A stretch of 64,000 nucleotides of DNA. Source: Sphingobacteriales bacterium. GTDB lineage: Bacteria > Bacteroidota > Bacteroidia > Chitinophagales > Chitinophagaceae. The notes beneath the pieces are model-generated. The model was not told where the DNA came from and did no database searches. It saw nothing but the letters and a program-made list of their open reading frames with translations. The stretch covers positions 426-64,425 of the forward strand of contig JAAXIF010000067.1 in NCBI GenBank assembly GCA_012270485.1, given 5' to 3'. The translations under genes were made by a program, and so were the position numbers. Shown here piece by piece: positions 3,169 to 30,905 of the stretch (the stretch's first letter is position 1; every line of letters starts with the position of its first letter).

Positions 3169-5319
3169 ATGGCTGACTTGAAATTTCAACGCAACTTTGG
3201 TATTGCCGCACACATCGATGCCGGTAAAACCACTACTACCGAGCGTATCCTGCGCTACACCGGTATGATTCACAAAATTGGTGAGGTACATGATGGTGCC
3301 GCTACTACTGACTGGATGGAGCAGGAAAAAGAAAGAGGTATCACCATTACTTCTGCTGCTGTTAGCTGTCAGTGGAATTTCCCAACTGTAAAAGGGAAAG
3401 CTGATGCCAATACAAAGAGCTATTACTTTAATATCATTGATACTCCGGGTCACGTGGATTTTACCGTAGAGGTAGAACGTTCTATGCGTGTACTGGATGG
3501 CTTGATTGCCCTTTTCTCTGCTGTGGATGGTGTTGAGCCTCAATCTGAGACAGTATGGCGTCAGGCGAACCGTTACAAAGTTCCTCGTATCGGTTTCGTA
3601 AATAAAATGGACCGTTCCGGTGCCGACTTCCTGAATGTAGTCAATCAGGTAAAGGAAATGTTGGGTGCAAAAGCTGTTCCTTTACAATTACCGATTGGTG
3701 CTGAAGATAATTTCAAAGGTGTAGTTGACCTGATCAAAATGAAAGGGATCATCTGGCACATGGAAACAGAAGGAATGACTTTCGATGAGATCGATGTTCC
3801 GGCTGATATGAAAGAAGATGTAGAATTCTGGAGACAGAATTTAATTGAAGCAGTAGCTGAATATGATGATACATTGATGGAGAAATTCTTCGATGATCCA
3901 AACAGCATTTCTGAAGATGAAGTTCATGAAGCAATTCGTAAAGCTTGTATCGATTTGAGCATCGTTCCTATGATGTGCGGATCCTCATTCAAGAATAAGG
4001 GTGTACAAACTGCACTGGATGCTGTTTGTCGCTACCTGCCTTCTCCCGTTGATATCGAAGATACCGTAGGTACTGATCCTGACACAGGTGAAACCATTAC
4101 TCGTAAACCTAGTGCAAAAGAACCATTTGCGGCACTGGCATTTAAGATCATGACAGATCCTTTCGTAGGTCGTCTGGCCTTCTTCCGTTGTTACAGTGGT
4201 CACCTCGATGCGGGTTCTTATGTGTTGAACGTAAGAAGTGGAAAGAAAGAGCGTATCAGCCGTATCATGAAGATGTTTGCCAACAAACAAAACCCAATCG
4301 ACTTCATCGAAGCGGGTGATATTGCAGCAGCTGTAGGGTTCAAAGAAATTAAAACCGGTGATACCCTTTGTGATGAGAATCATCCAATTACTCTTGAGAA
4401 CATGTTCATCCCTGAGCCTGTAATCGCGATCGCTGTTGAGCCTAAAACACAGGCCGATGTAGATAAAATGGGTATGGCTATCGCTAAACTGGTAGAAGAA
4501 GATCCAACACTGCGTGTAAATACGGATGAAGATACAGGTCAAACCATCCTTCGTGGCATGGGTGAATTGCACCTTGAGATCATCGTAGATCGTATGCGTC
4601 GTGAATTCAAAGTAGAAGTAAACCAGGGTGCGCCTCAGGTTGCTTATAAAGAAGCATTCGGAACCACTATCGAACACCGTGAAGTGCTGAAGAAGCAGTC
4701 TGGTGGTCGTGGTAAGTTCGCGGATATCCAATTCTCAATCGGTCCTGCTGATGAAGAATGGCTGAAAGAAAACGAAGGAAAGCATTTCCAATTCGTGAAT
4801 GATATCTTCGGTGGATCGATCCCCAAAGAATTCATCCCTGCTATTCAGAAAGGTTTTGAAACCGCAATGACTACAGGTGTTCTGGCAGGTTATCCGGTGA
4901 ACAATATGAAGGTTCGTGTATTCGACGGTAGCTACCATGATGTGGATTCTGATTCAATGTCATTTGAATTGTGTGCGAAGTCTGGTTTCCGTGAAGCAGG
5001 ACGTAAGGCAAAACCAACATTGTTGGAGCCGATCATGAAAGTAGAAGTATTGACTCCGGATCAGTACATGGGTGATGTAACAGGTGACTTGAACCGTCGT
5101 CGTGGTATGTTGGAAGGTATGGATAGCCGTGCTAACCTGCAAGTGATCAAGGCGAAAGTTCCTTTGAGCGAAATGTTTGGTTATGTAACCCAACTGCGTT
5201 CATTGTCTTCTGGTCGTGCCACTTCAACCATGGAGTTCTCACACTATTCTCCTGCACCCAACAATATTGCAGAAGAAGTGATGGCAAAGAACAAAGGAAA
5301 AGTAAAGATCGAGGAATAA
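3169..5319 (+). CDS. fusA: Translation elongation factor G
   Basis: 716 aa. G1 motif [15 protein letters not shown], plus DTPGHVDF and NKMDR. Full EF-G domains II-V are present ([25 protein letters not shown]). Confidence 0.97.
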
Positions 5320-24443: not shown

Positions 24444-27047
24444 ATGAAACGCTCTATGAGAAGACTCTTGCTTGCCGCATCTGCGTGTGCGGTATTTATG
24501 GGCTCAGCCCTATATGCCCAACAACCTCCGGCCGGAATGCCAGCCGGTACTCGTCCACCGGGCGATTCCTCTAAAACGCCTCCAGCACCCAAAAAACCGA
24601 CAGTTGCTGAAAAAACAAAAGGCAATAAAAAGATCGAAGGCTTATTTACCCTGTATCAGGATACTGCTACCGGTAGTCTTCAGATGTATATCAGAAAAGA
24701 CCAGCTTGATAAAGAATTCATTTATCAGAGTTTTTCCATCAATGGACTTACTTCATTGTTCTTACATCAAAGTATGCACCGTGCAACAGCCGTGTTTAAA
24801 ATGAAGAGAGCATTTGATAAAATCGAATTCTCTCAAGTGAATACCGGCTTTTTCTATGATAAGAATAATCCTGTGAGTAAGACCGCAGATGTAGATAAAC
24901 CCGAGGCGGTTTTTTACAACGATAAATTCAGTATCGAAGATTCATTGGGTTATTTGGTGAGTGTAGATCAGTTATTCCTGAGTGAAAAACTGGATCCTGT
25001 AAAACCCATCATACCACCAAGCCCATTGGCAATGTTCACTTTTAATTTGGGTGGATTGAATCCTACCAAATCGAAATATGCCAATATCCGTTCCTTCCCG
25101 AATAATACGGATGTGGTAGTGGATCTATCTTATGATAATCCAAGTACACTTGCAAGCGGAGGCCCTGATGTAACAGATCCTCGTTATGTACGTGTACGTA
25201 TGCAACATAGCTTTATTGAAATGCCTAAGAACGATTTCCGTTCACGCAGAGACGATCAGCGTGTGGGATATTTCTTGGATCAGCGTAATAACCAAACCAG
25301 TACCAGTCCTGTTCCGTATAAGGACATGATCAATCGCTGGAATTTGGTGAAGAAAGATCCATCTGCAGCCATCAGCGAACCTGTTGAGCCAATTGTATTC
25401 TGGGTAGAAAATACCACTCCACATGAGTATCGTCAAACCATTATCGACGCTGGAGTGAAATGGAATGAAGCATTTGAAAAAGCAGGATTTAGAAATGCTG
25501 TTCAAATGAAGATCATGCCCGATGATGCAACCTGGGATCCCGCAGATATTCGTTACAATGTAATTCGTTGGGTATCTTCTGCAAACCCTCCTTATGGAGC
25601 CATTGGACCCAGTTTTACCAATCCACGTACCGGACAAATACTCGGAGCTGATATTACTGTAGAATGGTTCTCAGGAAGTGCTACGCCACTTTTTGATGAG
25701 TTGGTTAACGGTCCGTCTATGCAAAGTGCAGCGGATTTACAGTTCCCGGGCATGCCAATGAAAAATCATACTGCTTGTACATTGGCAGGAGAGTTGAAAG
25801 CTCAGTTCATGACCGGACATACCACCCTCGAAGCCATGGATGCACCGGAAGGAGAGATCAAAGAAATGCATAAGCAATTCCTGATTTATTTGATCATGCA
25901 TGAAATGGGACATACACTCGGATTGAACCACAATATGAAAGCCAGTCAGATGTTATCGCCTGCAGATATCAACAACACTTCGATTACACGTTCTATCGGA
26001 TTGATTGGTTCTGTAATGGATTATCCTGCGATCAATGTGTCATCAGACAGAAGCAAGCAAGGTGATTATTATACTACCAAAGCAGGTCCTTATGATCTGT
26101 GGGCAATTGAATATGGTTACACACCATTCTCTGAATCACAGGAAGAAGCAGGACTTACCAAAATATTATCACGCAGTACGGATCCTAAATTAGCATTCGG
26201 TAATGATGGTGATGATATGAGAGCTCCGGGTAAAGCCATCGATCCTCGTGTGAATGTGAATGATCTTACCAATGATGCTATTGGTTATGCAGAAGATCGT
26301 TTCAAACTGGTAAATAATTTGATGGGTAAATTGGTACAGAAATATACCAAGCCCGGACAATCCTATGTAGAAGTACGTGCACGTTATGGGGTGTTGAATG
26401 GACAACGTAATAGCATGATCAATGCCGTAAGCCGTTATGTAGGTGGCGTGTATATTGATAGAAGCAATCCGGAGCAAAACTCAGGTAACAAGCCTTACAC
26501 ACCTGTACCGTTGGCTACTCAAAAGAAGGCAATGGATGTGTTGAGTAAATATGTATTTGCACCGAATGCTTTTGATGCAGATGCACAAGTATATCCATAT
26601 CTCGCATTCCAGCGTAGAGGATTTAATCAGCCGGGTAATGGTGAGGATTTTAAACTTACCAATAATGTACTGGGTCTTCAGGCAGGTGGTGCATTGGGAC
26701 ATATCCTGCATCCGATAACCTTACAGCGTATTACCAATACTCGTTTGTATGGTAATCAGTATAGTGTAGCCGATGTAATGGGTGATTTGGTGAAAGGAAT
26801 TTTTGATGCTGATATCAACGGTAATGTGAATGTTCACAGACAATACCTGCAAACTACCTTTGTAAAGGGTGCTGCTAATTTGTTGAACCCACAAGCACCG
26901 ATTGATGATGTATCTAAAGCTGCAGCGTTGTACACCATCAAGAAATTGAAAACCAAACTGGCAGCTGCCGTTTCAACCAACGAAGAAACCAAAGCGCATA
27001 GAGCCAATCTGATTTTCTTGATTGATAAGGCGCTGAAAACAGACTAA
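24444..27047 (+). CDS. Secreted zinc-dependent metalloprotease (DUF5117/DUF4953-type)
   Basis: 867 aa with a signal peptide. Zinc site HEMGHTLGLNHN. Confidence 0.8.
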   Translation: MKRSMRRLLLAASACAVFMGSALYAQQPPAGMPAGTRPPGDSSKTPPAPKKPTVAEKTKGNKKIEGLFTLYQDTATGSLQMYIRKDQLDKEFIYQSFSINGLTSLFLHQSMHRATAVFKMKRAFDKIEFSQVNTGFFYDKNNPVSKTADVDKPEAVFYNDKFSIEDSLGYLVSVDQLFLSEKLDPVKPIIPPSPLAMFTFNLGGLNPTKSKYANIRSFPNNTDVVVDLSYDNPSTLASGGPDVTDPRYVRVRMQHSFIEMPKNDFRSRRDDQRVGYFLDQRNNQTSTSPVPYKDMINRWNLVKKDPSAAISEPVEPIVFWVENTTPHEYRQTIIDAGVKWNEAFEKAGFRNAVQMKIMPDDATWDPADIRYNVIRWVSSANPPYGAIGPSFTNPRTGQILGADITVEWFSGSATPLFDELVNGPSMQSAADLQFPGMPMKNHTACTLAGELKAQFMTGHTTLEAMDAPEGEIKEMHKQFLIYLIMHEMGHTLGLNHNMKASQMLSPADINNTSITRSIGLIGSVMDYPAINVSSDRSKQGDYYTTKAGPYDLWAIEYGYTPFSESQEEAGLTKILSRSTDPKLAFGNDGDDMRAPGKAIDPRVNVNDLTNDAIGYAEDRFKLVNNLMGKLVQKYTKPGQSYVEVRARYGVLNGQRNSMINAVSRYVGGVYIDRSNPEQNSGNKPYTPVPLATQKKAMDVLSKYVFAPNAFDADAQVYPYLAFQRRGFNQPGNGEDFKLTNNVLGLQAGGALGHILHPITLQRITNTRLYGNQYSVADVMGDLVKGIFDADINGNVNVHRQYLQTTFVKGAANLLNPQAPIDDVSKAAALYTIKKLKTKLAAAVSTNEETKAHRANLIFLIDKALKTD

Positions 27048-27160
27048 GGAAGAGGAACAGAGAAATAAGAAACAGAGGAATAAGGAATGAGAAAGTAGTG
27101 GTGAGAATCAACTACTTTCTCATTCCTTATTTTTTATTCGATATTTCTTATTCTCCTCCA
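27047..27160 (+). terminator. Long GGAATAAGAAATA-word hairpin acting as terminator
   Basis: Perfect 21-bp stem AATAAGGAATGAGAAAGTAGT (27079-27099) / ACTACTTTCTCATTCCTTATT (27111-27131) followed by a T run. The outer arms are purine/pyrimidine word repeats. Confidence 0.75.
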
Positions 27161-27652: not shown

Positions 27653-28288
27653 TTACCAATGGGTTTTCACTTTCATTAGAATATATTCAAATCGATCTAT
27701 TTTGTTTAAAATAGAGGGTAGCAAATGGTGTAACCAGAAAAGGAATGATCTGATTTCTTTGTAAACGGATTCTAAATAGTTGAAGTTGCGAAAGATGGGT
27801 TCGTAGTGGTACACTCGGTTACGAATGTTTCGAATGCGATGGAGAGATTCGTCGATGTTTTTTCTTTGTTTTTCTTGTTTGGGAAGATGTACAAAAATGG
27901 TACGCAAAGGTTTCCAAAGTAATTTGGCATGATACCGATTAAAGAGCCGATTCCAAAAGCCAAAGTTTAATTCTGCTATAATGCCATCTGCAGTAACAGT
28001 TTTTTGCTGAAACTGAATTTTTTGTTCAGCCCTTTGTATGGCAGTTTGAAATTCTTTAGGAAGCTTATTTTTAAACCAAAAATCATCTTTGAAATATGCT
28101 TTCAGCTTTTGATGAATAGCATTTCTCAATGAAATTTCCAACAAAGACAAAGCCGGATACAACGCTTCGGATAGTTCGATGTTTGTCAGGTATAATTGAT
28201 ATGCAGCGTTGGTATTATAATTGGCTTCTTCTAAATAAATATTGAATCGGGGATGTGAAATAAATGACTTAATTTCTTCCGTAATCAT
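27653..28288 (-). CDS. Abi_2 (AbiD/AbiF-like) abortive-infection family protein
   Basis: N-terminal SHPRFNIYL...YQLYLTNIELSEALYPALSLLEISLRNAIHQKL, central LNFGFWNRLF, and C-terminal IRNIRNRVYHYEPIF. All are characteristic of Pfam Abi_2. Confidence 0.8.
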   Translation of the reverse strand: MITEEIKSFISHPRFNIYLEEANYNTNAAYQLYLTNIELSEALYPALSLLEISLRNAIHQKLKAYFKDDFWFKNKLPKEFQTAIQRAEQKIQFQQKTVTADGIIAELNFGFWNRLFNRYHAKLLWKPLRTIFVHLPKQEKQRKNIDESLHRIRNIRNRVYHYEPIFRNFNYLESVYKEIRSFLFWLHHLLPSILNKIDRFEYILMKVKTHW

Positions 28289-28450
28289 TTTTTTTGTTTT
28301 AAGTTAAAAATAATTATACCTTTACCTCATGATGCCAGTTACTCCTCTCCCGGCTCTTTTACCGGTGATGAAACTGGTTTTTTTATTTTTAGGGCTACCT
28401 TATTTTTTTTTCTTTAGCAAGTATTGATCCTAAAATTGCACAGTTCTACA

Positions 28451-28478
28451 ATCGTATTTCCCGCAAATTTGATGAACA
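28451..28478. repeat. Islet box copy 1 (ATCGTATTTCCCGCAAATTTGATG)
   Basis: Matches 29335-29358 exactly over 24 nt and 30214-30241 with one mismatch over 28 nt. Lies 162 nt upstream of the Abi start. Confidence 0.9.
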
Positions 28479-28665
28479 GTTAATTGACTTCGTTTCAAGT
28501 GAAATGAGAGGAGCATTGATCACGCAACTGATCATCTGCGACGAAGGATCTGACTATTAGTGTGAGTTTTATGGTATAAGAGAGAAGCAAAACAAAATGT
28601 TACATCTCAGCTGTGCAACATGCAGAGTTCCCTCATATCTAGGGAGACATCTGCGACGAATTTTT
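28479..28665. repeat. Islet non-coding module, copy A (short form)
   Basis: Aligns with 30242-30273 plus 30441-30600. A 45-nt core is identical except for 1 nt. It ends in T5 at the mazF stop codon. Confidence 0.85.
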
Positions 28666-28999
28666 ACAGATCCAAAACGATCAGTAAATTCTTTTTTAGT
28701 AATTGGATTTGATCTTGATTGAGTTTGCCAATTCTTTGTATCAGTCTTTTATTATCAATGGCCCTAATTTGGTCAATGAGAATGTCACTCTGTTGATCCA
28801 ATTGCGATTTTTTTAAATGCACACGTAGAATATTCATGTCAGGTTGAATATTGGTAGTAATGGGACAAACAATCGTTGACAAATGGGTATCATTCAATAG
28901 ATCCGTTTGTACAATAACAACAGGTCTGGTTTTACCCGGCTCAGTTCCTTTACCGGGATTCAGATTGGCTAGCCATATATCATACTGCTTAATCTTCAT
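28664..28999 (-). CDS. mazF: MazF/PemK-family type II toxin (endoribonuclease)
   Basis: MKIKQYDIWLANLNPGKGTEPGKTRPVVIVQTD...IVCPITT...IDQIRAIDNKRL. The ATG at 28999 overlaps the antitoxin stop by 11 nt. Confidence 0.85.
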   Translation of the reverse strand: MKIKQYDIWLANLNPGKGTEPGKTRPVVIVQTDLLNDTHLSTIVCPITTNIQPDMNILRVHLKKSQLDQQSDILIDQIRAIDNKRLIQRIGKLNQDQIQLLKKNLLIVLDL

Positions 29000-29219
29000 C
29001 AGCCAATTTTTCAAACTCACGTAAGATGTTCATGGACTCTCTTCTCGTAAGGGCAGATTCTTTTGCGAGAGCATGCTTCAATAACTTTCTCTGATGATAA
29101 CGATTGTAGAGATCTACCGCTTCATTGATATAGCGATTACGGGCTATGTTCAATTGAGCTGTTATAGACTCAGCCTCTTCAAATGTATGATCATCCAGTT
29201 TGAGTGATAAAGTTTTCAT
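28989..29219 (-). CDS. RHH/CopG-like antitoxin partner of MazF
   Basis: MKTLSLKLDDHTFEEAESITAQLNIARNRYINEAV. Position and overlap are typical of a type II TA pair. An alternative start lies at 29282. Confidence 0.7.
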   Translation of the reverse strand: MKTLSLKLDDHTFEEAESITAQLNIARNRYINEAVDLYNRYHQRKLLKHALAKESALTRRESMNILREFEKLADED

Positions 29220-29334
29220 ACCATTACTTTTTGTAAAGGTATATACTTTTGGTGTATACTCTGAGAAAATTGGCTCTTGCATAGCTTTTTTTTAAGCGTG
29301 ACATTCAGTAGTTCCGAAAATAGTAATATGCCAC

Positions 29335-29358
29335 ATCGTATTTCCCGCAAATTTGATG
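29335..29358. repeat. Islet box copy 2
   Basis: ATCGTATTTCCCGCAAATTTGATG. Lies 52 nt (or 115 nt) upstream of the antitoxin start and 16 nt after the KilA-N stop. Confidence 0.9.
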
Positions 29359-29373
29359 TGCGTATTATAAATG

Positions 29374-30189
29374 TTACTGGAGTGCTTTTGTGGCTTTCCT
29401 GTTTAACAAAGTTTGCATTTGCTGAATCGCCACTTTATTTAATAATAGTAGTCTCTCGCTGAATGAGATTCCTTGATGTATAAGAACGGCATTCAAGCTT
29501 TCTAAATTGGAAAGTATGACCAGTTGCTCTAGTGTGGCATAGTCTCTGATATTACCGGTAGTATTTGGGTTTTCTTTTCTCCATTGTGTTGCTGTTTTGC
29601 CGAACAATGCCATATTCAATAAGTCGGCTTCTGTTGCATATTGTCTAACACTTTCAGTAGCGGATAATAATTTGGGTATCAGGGTTTCTTTAATGGCATC
29701 TGTAAGAATATGATAATTGATTTTTGATAAAGTCCCTTGTAGACTCCATCCGGATTGTAAATGTTTTTCATCGGCTGACTTTAGTCGCTGAAATTCTTTG
29801 ATAAGGTAGACTTTGAACTCCGGTGAAATCCACATGCCAAATTCAAGAGCTATATCCACATGTGCAAAAGTGCCGCCATATCGACCTGCTCTAGATCTGA
29901 TACCAATTGCATTGGTTTTTTCTATCCATTCTTTGGCACTCAGTTTATAGCTATTTAAACCGGCCTGTGTTTTAATTATGGCGAATTCGCCATAATTAAA
30001 ATGGGGGTTATTAACGGTTTCCCAAATGCCAAGAAATTCAATGGTATTTCTGTTTCTAAGCCAATCGGAAATAAAGAAATCACCGTCTTTTGCTTTGAGC
30101 ATATCTGTTAATGAGATATAGTCAGCCTCTTGTTCTTTGAACATGGAAATGGCAACGCCCTTTACCTCGATACTTGTATTCTTTTTCAT
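29374..30189 (-). CDS. KilA-N domain DNA-binding protein
   Basis: MKKNTSIEVKGVAISMFKEQEADYISLTDMLKAKDGDFFISDWLRNRNTIEFLGIWE...GRYGGTFAHVDIALEFGMWISPEF. Start taken at the internal ATG 30189; the upstream track extension runs through non-coding repeats. Confidence 0.8.
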   Translation of the reverse strand: MKKNTSIEVKGVAISMFKEQEADYISLTDMLKAKDGDFFISDWLRNRNTIEFLGIWETVNNPHFNYGEFAIIKTQAGLNSYKLSAKEWIEKTNAIGIRSRAGRYGGTFAHVDIALEFGMWISPEFKVYLIKEFQRLKSADEKHLQSGWSLQGTLSKINYHILTDAIKETLIPKLLSATESVRQYATEADLLNMALFGKTATQWRKENPNTTGNIRDYATLEQLVILSNLESLNAVLIHQGISFSERLLLLNKVAIQQMQTLLNRKATKALQ

Positions 30190-30213
30190 GCAAGCAACAT
30201 CGTAAAGAATACA

Positions 30214-30241
30214 ATCGTATTTCCCGCAAATATGATGAACA
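30214..30241. repeat. Islet box copy 3
   Basis: ATCGTATTTCCCGCAAATATGATGAACA, 24 nt upstream of the KilA-N ATG. Confidence 0.9.
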
Positions 30242-30600
30242 ACTGTTTGACTTCGTTTCAAGTGAAGTGAGAGAAAAGTGAACCGTCTTATCACCTCCTT
30301 CGTCGTAATGCTTCCTTCATTACATTCAGGATAAACCTCAGAATGACGGAGCAAGTCGACAAAAAAGCAGTGTTGGCAAAGCCAACACTGCTTGAACACC
30401 ACACCACGAAAATGTCATCCTGTCCCAAGGACTCCCACGGAGAGGAGCATTGATCACGCAAGTGATCATCTGCGACGAAGGATCTGACCATTATGGGGAG
30501 TTTTATGTCTATCGTAGAGAAACAAAACGAACTAGTACACCTTAGCTGTGTAACAAGCAGAGTACCCTGTACTTCGGACTATATCTGTGGTAAGCTTTTT
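30242..30600. repeat. Islet non-coding module, copy C (long form with 167-nt extra segment 30274-30440)
   Basis: The flanks align with copy A. The extra segment is bounded by a GAGAG direct repeat. Confidence 0.85.
30359..30393 (-). terminator. Perfect 13-bp hairpin with T-run on the minus strand
   Basis: AAGCAGTGTTGGC-aaa-GCCAACACTGCTT, preceded on the + strand by A6 (a T6 tail when read on the minus strand). Confidence 0.55.
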
Positions 30601-30757
30601 ATTATCAACTCTATAGAAAAGAACAAGATAAAGCAGTAAGTATGAGATGTCTAGTACTTCTATTAACCGGAGATATGCTCGTATGGTATGGGGAGTATAG
30701 AAGGGGGGCTGAAAGAAAGGAAAAAGGATACTAAATGAGACTAGGATCTACAACGCA

Positions 30758-30801
30758 CTTGAAACGGACTTATAACGGACTTATAACGGAGTTGAAACGC
30801 A
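30758..30801. repeat. Four 11-bp tandem units (iteron-like)
   Basis: CTTGAAACGGA / CTTATAACGGA / CTTATAACGGA / GTTGAAACGCA. Confidence 0.8.
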
Positions 30802-30905
30802 GATAAACCTTTTCCTGAGGAGTTGTATGGCTATAGGGAGAAGTAAAATTCTAAGAGATGCAATTATTGTTTTTTCGTATGTTTAATGACATCAAATATT
30901 TCAAT

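Follow-up and report, generated by a model that had tools for sequence, protein, structure and literature searches.

The stretch analysed here (the window) comprises 64,000 nt of a Sphingobacteriales bacterium of the family Chitinophagaceae (assembly GCA_012270485.1, contig JAAXIF010000067.1, positions 426 to 64,425). Between the CBS gene and rpsA it contains a small variable island of anti-phage and toxin-antitoxin genes of freshwater Sediminibacterium (the islet), which is found at this site in Sediminibacterium and in related Chitinophagaceae. The islet consists of three minus-strand cassettes, in the order Abi-MazEF-KilA-N from the CBS gene, each preceded by a copy of the same 24-nt box, and two of these boxes adjoin copies of a non-coding module. 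Its GC content is 0.28-0.38, compared with 0.42-0.46 in the flanks, in agreement with an earlier interpretation made from the letters of this DNA (the sequence-only reading), which had described a lower-GC insert. The genes of the islet are as follows.

27653..28288, minus strand: AbiF-like (Abi_2, HEPN) toxin gene (Abi), 211 aa; constant end of the array, adjoining the CBS gene
28664..28999, minus strand: mazF/PemK toxin gene (Pfam PemK_toxin E 1.3e-28; a 111-aa gene call in related loci)
28989..29282, minus strand: candidate antitoxin in the MazE position, 97 aa, upstream of mazF and overlapping it; a 76-aa form from an internal ATG is possible
29374..30189, minus strand: KilA-N domain protein, 271 aa (Pfam KilA-N E 9e-23)

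Cassettes at the CBS–rpsA hotspot

The gene identities proposed earlier were recovered by Pfam, which gives CBS, Abi_2, PemK/MazF and KilA-N, and the assignment of the cassettes to defence or addiction is backed by PADLOC. The Abi protein matches PD-T4-5 (E 7e-18), its Pfam Abi_2 score of 26.9 bits being just over the 25.6 cutoff, and the KilA-N protein is a full-length match to the candidate defence family PDC-S22 (E 2.5e-125, residues 1-270 against positions 1-273 of the 281 in the profile). The middle cassette has the MazEF layout of a PemK/MazF-fold toxin with a small overlapping gene upstream. The 97-aa product of that small gene gave no ribbon-helix-helix (RHH) or other significant match in Pfam or NCBIfam and matched no PADLOC family, and its earlier description as an RHH antitoxin was a guess from position.

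Exact-protein look-ups placed the islet always between CBS and rpsA in many metagenome assemblies and metagenome-assembled genomes, with a content that differs among relatives (loci from other assemblies are given by L numbers). In L024 and in Sediminibacterium sp. Gen4 the order is Abi, a four-gene set, further genes in the case of Gen4, KilA-N and MazEF; L021 has KilA-N before MazEF, and L027 and L022 have no KilA-N gene. The constant end of the array is Abi adjoining CBS, with a box and a module upstream of it, and one module copy stands next to Abi in all Sediminibacterium loci. The same hotspot is occupied in other genera by Abi homologues 65-69% identical to that of the window (L028, L030 and L033), and its cargo across several genera includes PD-T4-5-like Abi, PDC-S22, the YhcG nuclease, AbiJ and a kinase. 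A DUF6934 gene with its own box also lies in the array (L025 534-986), and L004, a strain variant of the species of the window, carries an extra 3.3-kb gene set between direct repeats of part of the module and a tail of ~400 nt. By these comparisons, the islet is one instance of a variable defence/addiction cassette array at a conserved CBS–rpsA hotspot.

Homologues of the KilA-N protein that are 45-60% identical to it occur in Aeromonas, Pasteurella, Xenorhabdus, Bacteroidales plasmids, Staphylococcus phage EW and Streptococcus satellite phages, an unusually high conservation across phyla. Some assemblies of the same species (L002 8100-8915, L009 and L010, e.g. GCA_943370745.1) have the gene split into open reading frames (ORFs) of 87 and 153 aa, so that some members of the population probably carry it as a pseudogene. 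A gene for a 98-aa predicted membrane protein accompanies MazEF or KilA-N cassettes elsewhere (L020 3680-3750 and 5070-5140, L022 330-611, L023 2485-2781), and Gen4 has a second copy of part of its 5' end.

The box upstream of each cassette

The box, ATCGTATTTCCCGCAAATWTGATG on the + strand, is present in three copies in the islet.

28451..28474, minus strand: Box 1, upstream of Abi (162 nt to the start codon); orthologous copies are known
29335..29358, minus strand: Box 2, upstream of the antitoxin gene, without P1 or the rest of the module; the KilA-N stop codon is 15 nt away
30214..30237, minus strand: Box 3, upstream of KilA-N (24 nt to the start codon)

The three positions (28451, 29335 and 30214) are those named in the sequence-only reading, and the distances it gave from box to start codon, 162 nt for Abi, 52 or 115 nt for the antitoxin and 24 nt for KilA-N, agree with the ORF coordinates. 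No further copy with up to three mismatches exists in the 64 kb, where none is expected by chance. The mazE box of other species bears the full module, unlike Box 2.

Alignment of eight copies reduced the box to an invariant 13-mer, TTGCGGGAAATAC, usually with TTTG just upstream, which precedes KilA-N, Abi, mazE, YhcG and DUF6934 genes at the same hotspot in several species and genera. In the other genera (L028, L030 and L033) the box takes the form TTCAAAATACC-N6-AT(C/A)AAWWTTGCGGGAAATAC and precedes, in gene orientation, KilA-N, Abi and a YhcG/DUF1016 nuclease gene. This conservation across genera at the hotspot supports the earlier proposal of a shared, gene-oriented promoter or operator, which we consider the best reading of the box on sequence grounds.

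The orientation of the putative signal is indicated by TTTG, which is kept on the gene strand in nearly all box copies and is lost from the opposite strand in copy 3, as had been noticed before, and also in other genera. This asymmetry supports a gene-oriented element resembling the -7 element of Bacteroidota, in which the sigma-A promoter consensus consists of TTTG at -33 and TAnnTTTG at -7. The variants CAAATTTG, CATATTTG, CAATTTTG and AAAATTTG match five of the six specified -7 positions in nearly all copies, in a consensus that is short and loose, and one copy reads ATATTG at this site. Two features weigh against reading the box as such a promoter. A -33 TTTG located 19-21 nt upstream of the -7-like element was not seen in the aligned copies, and the most strongly constrained bases of the box sit just downstream of TTTG, where they would suit an operator, a start-site element or another type of promoter equally well.

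Two other promoter models were tried and set aside. A sigma-70 scan found sites no more commonly than in shuffled sequences, and its model is inapplicable to Bacteroidota. An extracytoplasmic function (ECF)-like reading, with two blocks in the alignment (GGGAAAT, ~16 nt, yGATkT), was dropped for want of the AAC core that is typical of ECF-type promoters.

The source of the box copies is indicated by L028 and L030, in which the copies before Abi and YhcG align with the KilA-N copy through the KilA-N leader to the KilA-N ATG and are therefore duplicates of the KilA-N 5' region. Boxes are also present in loci that have no KilA-N gene nearby (L033, L022 and L027), which bears on the earlier naming of KilA-N and the antitoxin as candidate binders of the box. 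KilA-N homologues elsewhere were considered as carriers of the box and rejected, since the region upstream of the homologue on a Haliscomenobacter plasmid has neither box nor module; the box therefore belongs to the locus and not to the KilA-N protein family.

Remnants of the KilA-N start and first codons (ATGAAAAAAAGCGCTG...) lie between the box and the YhcG gene at L028 6322-6365, and a more decayed remnant is found ahead of Abi at L028 4740-4760. These remnants are traces of promoter-module copying.

In the mechanism that we propose, the box would be the conserved core of a promoter or operator, in which the invariant GCGGGAAATAC comes after the -7-like CAWWTTTG, at about the place where transcription should begin. 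The box would originally have belonged to the KilA-N (PDC-S22) gene and would have been copied, sometimes together with the KilA-N leader and start codon, before other cassettes, so that each cassette would be driven by its own copy of one signal.

The module and its repeat units

The layout of two module copies described earlier, copy A beyond Box 1 and copy C beyond Box 3, was reproduced by alignment, in which copy C has a 167-nt insert (30274-30440). The 45-nt core lies, as reported, at 28510 and 30444, and the sole difference between its copies is a C/G beside the TGATCA hairpin loop. In copy A, the T5 at 28661-28665, which had been placed exactly at the mazF stop, overlaps the stop codon at 28664-28666.

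Comparison of ~25 distinct copies identified the module as a piece of a mosaic repeat that is restricted to this locus and always lies on the upstream side of the box. The order of the long form, counted from the box, is P1, the left arm V1, a central 13-bp hairpin (HP1), the right arm, which is the 45-nt core, and one or more U units. V1 is an inverted, degenerate copy of the right arm, the two forming a nested imperfect palindrome of ~200 nt, and the 167-nt insert of copy C is the left arm with HP1. The U unit (~107 nt), which is also found alone and in tandem, comprises an A-rich tract, a GTTACA..TGTAAC hairpin, a second hairpin and, in most copies, a T run. The elements in the window are listed below without strand.

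28475..28509: P1, copy A; P1 is always contiguous with the box, on its gene-distal side
28510..28554: 45-nt core, copy A (right arm of the palindrome); this copy has neither left arm nor central hairpin
28555..28665: U unit, copy A, with an A-rich tract, a GTTACA..TGTAAC-type hairpin, a hairpin at 28621-28655 (TGCAGA..TCTGCG) and T5
30238..30273: P1, copy C, from the module alignment
30274..30443: V1 and HP1, copy C, equal to the insert and three bases; 30291-30305 is complementary to 30473-30487, and HP1 is at 30365-30393
30444..30488: 45-nt core, copy C, the right arm of the palindrome, including the TGATCA hairpin
30489..30600: U unit, copy C, with a hairpin at 30556-30589 (AGCAGA..TCTGTG) and a T run at 30596-30600
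30601..30857: tail, non-coding, belonging to a longer repeat unit that is duplicated in strain variants

In one copy of the palindrome, that of L025, an inverted-repeat search found nested perfect arms of 14, 12 and 13 nt. Its fold is very stable, with -91 kcal/mol (z -10.0) on one strand and -105 kcal/mol (z -9.7) on the other. For copy C of the window (30280-30500) the z values are -7.2 (+ strand) and -4.0 (- strand), and copy A folds no better than shuffled sequences (z -0.45 and +0.28, respectively). The outer stem of the U unit covaries, reading CGCAGA/TCTGCG in some copies and CGCCGA/TCGGCG in others; pairing in it amounts to 89%, both sides have changed in 12 cells, and none of 500 shuffles reached the observed value. 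A coding role was rejected: a short reading frame across U is common to copies A and C, but many copies have no start codon, and the unit types differ in length by numbers that are not multiples of three.

A palindromic element that is flanked by an A tract and, at its opposite end, by a T tract has the look of a bidirectional terminator, and this is the reading of the repeat units that we prefer. The main stem of the U unit and its T run are 7 nt apart, and HP1 followed by T6 was scored as terminator-like on the minus strand. Full and partial repeat units lie at the cassette junctions, with hybrid U/core units in L003, and partial module copies lie beside unrelated cargo. In the proposed mechanism the units would mark the boundaries of cassettes as strong, largely bidirectional terminators or insulators, leaving each toxic gene to rely on its own box, and would also serve as stretches of homology for the duplication, deletion and re-ordering of cassettes.

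Several observations do not sit well with termination and homologous exchange as the functions of the repeats. The type 2 U units have no T run on the + strand, and module copy C lies between divergent genes, where there is no obvious task for a terminator of a co-oriented upstream gene. Recombination at the repeats is deduced from the comparison of assemblies, some of which are metagenomic. The flanks of the core, GTCATCCTGAGGAGCATTG and ATCATCTGCGACGAAGGATCTG, are kept almost base for base in other genera, a stricter conservation than a terminator or a recombination substrate needs. The preferred model leaves this conservation unexplained, which is the main reason for keeping two other readings, a small RNA (sRNA) gene and a site for a recombinase.

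In the first of these, the module would be a structured sRNA gene of ~190-360 nt on the + strand of the window, divergent from the box and ending at the U hairpin and T run, and its product (a regulator, a decoy or an RNA antitoxin, for instance) would affect the cassettes either in trans or in cis. The strong conservation of the core across genera is consistent with this, together with an inner hairpin that changes with its pairing largely kept (TGATCAC/GTGATCA against AAACC/GGTT in L028 and L033, with seven of eight pairs kept). In the + direction, a hairpin followed by T5-T7 closes most U units, the outer U stem has 16 G.T cells against 5 A.C cells, which weakly favours the + strand, the V1-core helix keeps a G.U-compatible change in L019, and the -7-like CAAATTTG is palindromic in Sediminibacterium and could fire both ways. 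However, a conserved promoter on the + strand is missing, TTTG being lost there in copy 3, L028 and L030, and the strand signals disagree: 30 U copies compared by folding energy divide 13 to 17 between the strands, without bias (p = 0.6), the wobble pairs of other helices favour the opposite strand, so that helices taken singly point either way, and the palindrome folds equally well on both strands. The truncated forms that lack the left arm, such as copy A, fold no better than shuffles. RNAalifold recovered the TGATCA hairpin alone and no global consensus structure from the core plus U on either strand, and Rfam gave no match to the module, either in the whole window at gathering thresholds or in the islet at E <= 10. 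We consider an sRNA gene unlikely, though far from negligible.

The distribution of the repeats bears on whether the box and module together are a mobile element. A genome-wide scan of species-representative genomes, with the box as query and the U unit alone not included, returned five stretches in four genomes, three with records titled Sediminibacterium or Chitinophagaceae and a fourth whose record is titled Brevundimonas, and a scan of metagenome contigs with the core returned five stretches. All box and core matches lie in one syntenic place, on contigs of up to 184 kb, and these are therefore repeats of one locus and not the generic dispersed repeat that the sequence-only reading had allowed for. 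Neither box nor core is present in the viral contigs scanned, and a phage or satellite origin of the repeats, which was also considered, is unsupported, the viral-contig scan for the Abi leader hairpin (see below) being empty as well.

It is in this light that a non-autonomous element resembling a miniature inverted-repeat transposable element (MITE), with an outward-reading promoter at its end and inserted before each cassette, has to be judged. The nested inverted-repeat body is typical of MITEs, homology on the gene side of the box breaks off abruptly, at a base that different cassettes have in common, and an insertion of the IS110 family at a fixed point of the U hairpin in three assemblies indicates that the repeats attract mobile DNA. 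Yet the copies occur at one locus in one orientation, with none dispersed in contigs of 64-184 kb or elsewhere in the representative genomes; inspection of the two ends of the long form revealed no target-site duplication and only ~60% inverted similarity between them. In L028 and L030, moreover, the duplicated segment passes the box into the KilA-N leader and start codon, which indicates local segmental duplication. We regard such an element as improbable.

The modular, intergenic hairpin units, the long palindrome that can form on either strand and the terminator-like units recall the bacterial interspersed mosaic elements (BIMEs) built from repetitive extragenic palindromic (REP) sequences, the enterobacterial repetitive intergenic consensus (ERIC) sequences and the Correia elements of Neisseria. 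REP sequences are targets of some IS110 members, and the repeats described here are likewise a target of this family. Those elements, in contrast, are dispersed and number tens to hundreds per genome, whereas all copies found of the present units occupy one hotspot in one orientation, and the units are tied physically to a promoter-like box.

The IS110-family transposase gene (Pfam DEDD_Tnp_IS110 and Transposase_20) lies at L026 3049-4086 on the minus strand, with a junction near 4280 and ~190 nt of non-coding DNA ahead of the gene. The insertion point, between GAGACATCT and CGTATG inside the U hairpin, is the same in the three assemblies (L026, L007 and the end of L020), and the insertion may explain several of the contig ends found there.

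The second reading kept for the sake of the core flanks is that the repeats are sites of site-specific recombination, like integron attC or dif modules, served by a recombinase encoded elsewhere in the genome. Mostly co-oriented cassettes with hairpin-forming repeats between them, a cassette order permuted among species, toxin-antitoxin and defence cargo of the kind typical of integron cassettes, and sharp homology boundaries all agree with this. The loci examined, however, contain no integrase or recombinase gene in or beside the array, the secondary IS110 insertion apart, the units contain no RYYYAAC/GTTRRRY pair, and the copies are mosaic and variable in length, with hybrid units that look like the outcome of homologous exchange. 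Site-specific recombination has, in our judgement, a small chance of being the explanation.

A related view, which we hold to be doubtful, is that of an integron-like defence array without an integrase, in which a common promoter or operator, possibly under KilA-N control, would serve the cassettes and the structured repeats of ~100-200 nt would act as insulators and exchange sites; in a variant of this view the core would be a new regulatory RNA. The resemblance to chromosomal integron arrays (attC/VCR) lies in mostly co-oriented variable cassettes, often of toxin-antitoxin or defence genes, whose order differs among relatives, and in conserved structured repeats of ~100 nt between them. The differences are that the gene tables of the loci hold no integrase, that attI and R''/R' core sites are missing here, that each cassette has its own promoter copy in place of the single Pc promoter, and that the repeats are mosaic.

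Two minor features of the repeats were also observed. The loop of HP1 is inverted in L018 at ~2330-2360 (GCTTCGC, GCGAAGC elsewhere) with both flanks unflipped, a change typical of DNA-level palindromes. The tail contains, at 30752-30799, an 11-nt tandem repeat (AACGGACTTAA-like) of 4.4 copies, one helical turn apart and kept in strain variants, which looks like an array of protein-binding sites.

The Abi gene and its leader hairpin

The Abi translation contains the Rx4H motif RNRVYH, and its AlphaFold2 model (pLDDT 88.6) has a sole significant fold match in the PDB, 8vz6_A, the structure of PbAbiF with its non-coding RNA (ncRNA) (probability 1.00, TMq 0.64). The link to this solved structure is made by the fold search alone, single-sequence and profile searches both having failed. 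The published AbiF systems are type III toxin-antitoxin systems in which the leader of the toxin gene itself supplies a structured RNA as antitoxin, arranged as promoter, structured leader ncRNA and toxin gene (PMC12373285; PMC12737573). The leader of the Abi gene contains a hairpin in the corresponding place.

28334..28378, minus strand: leader hairpin, candidate cis antitoxin RNA (AbiFr-like), inside the 162-nt leader

The hairpin has the layout GCCAGTT-TCATCA-CCGG-loop-CCGG-GAGAGGAGT-AACTGGC and occurs once in the window. It recurs 45-110 nt upstream of Abi homologues with 53-69% identity overall, including homologues of 53-59% identity in unrelated genomic contexts. The bases of its internal loop, UCAUCA and GAGAGGAG, are invariant, and both stems carry compensatory changes: 96.4% of the cells in the alignment are paired, 6 of the 11 pairs change on both sides, and none of 500 shuffles reached the observed values. 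RNAalifold gives the same fold. It is on the 8vz6 fold match, the covariation of the hairpin and the published architecture that the AbiF reading of this cassette is based. The Abi cassette would thus be a type III toxin-antitoxin-like AbiF system, and we infer that its RNA partner is the minus-strand hairpin at 28334-28378 and not the module.

The sequence-only reading had suggested the module itself as a possible RNA partner of the Abi toxin, or as its leader, and had raised a possible correspondence to the abiF motif. Its proposal of a shared promoter or operator box stood, as described above; this second part did not. AbiF toxins do have RNA partners (PMC12373285), and one copy of the module adjoins Abi in all Sediminibacterium loci. 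The module lies, however, upstream of the box in gene orientation and hence outside the leader, and it also precedes mazE and KilA-N and stands alone by unrelated genes. The Abi-proximal box of L028 has neither core nor U unit, and the module is missing near Abi homologues elsewhere, which retain the leader hairpin. The Rfam check found no abiF motif anywhere in the region. The module can scarcely be the partner of Abi. The idea that the core pairs with the leader hairpin or mimics it was also rejected: UCAUC and GAGGAG are common to both, but the duplex energies do not exceed those of shuffles in strength.

Outside the hotspot, small DUF6804 or DUF6934 genes lie ahead of the Abi homologues (L031 4587-4880, L032 219-416, L034 6182-6319).

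Compared with the known AbiF/AbiFr systems, AbiF-RCd22 of C. difficile and PbAbiF of Prevotellaceae (8vz6), the cassette shares an Abi_2/HEPN toxin of ~210 aa whose fold matches PbAbiF, and a covarying hairpin on the same strand in a leader of ~160 nt that runs from a promoter-like element to the toxin start (PMC12373285; PMC12737573). It differs in having one hairpin copy where RCd22 has two, in the lack of a sequence-search link from Abi to 8vz6, and in a hairpin that is missed by the Rfam abiF model (RF03085), which gave no match to the leader or to a homologous leader even at E <= 10. The hairpin would add a clearly covarying, Bacteroidota-wide RNA element to the AbiF-type type III systems, and its absence from the hits of the current Rfam model matters for annotation.

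Taken as a whole, the mechanism of copied promoter boxes, insulating and recombining repeats and an AbiF system with its leader hairpin is, in our estimation, evenly poised between right and wrong. The individual genes and the pairing of AbiF with RNA are already known, and no major concept is changed. The islet resembles other defence-island hotspots in the low GC and strain variability of defence genes located between the same core genes in several genera, and differs from them in carrying a repeated promoter box and boundary repeats. To our knowledge, no defence hotspot has been described in which every cassette has a copy of one locus-specific promoter box in front of it and mosaic palindromic repeats form the boundaries. 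If the box is a common promoter or operator, several unrelated toxins and defence genes (AbiF, MazEF, PDC-S22 and YhcG) would be wired to one signal, new cassettes would be wired in by duplication of a promoter module, and a defence island under common regulation could be assembled in this simple way. For studying the insulation of toxic cassettes, and the turnover of a hotspot that has no dedicated recombinase, the boundary repeats offer a tractable case.

Two further observations were made in the neighbourhood of the islet. A perfect 21-nt inverted repeat with an 11-nt loop lies at 27079-27131 of the window, just past a peptidase gene ending at 27047, and is probably the terminator of that gene. 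On the other side, a gene of the 23S_rRNA_IVP family (four-helix bundle) adjoins rpsA, at L001 3347-3730 on the + strand and L002 3310-3684 on the - strand; its strand and length vary among assemblies of the same species, marking a second small variable spot.

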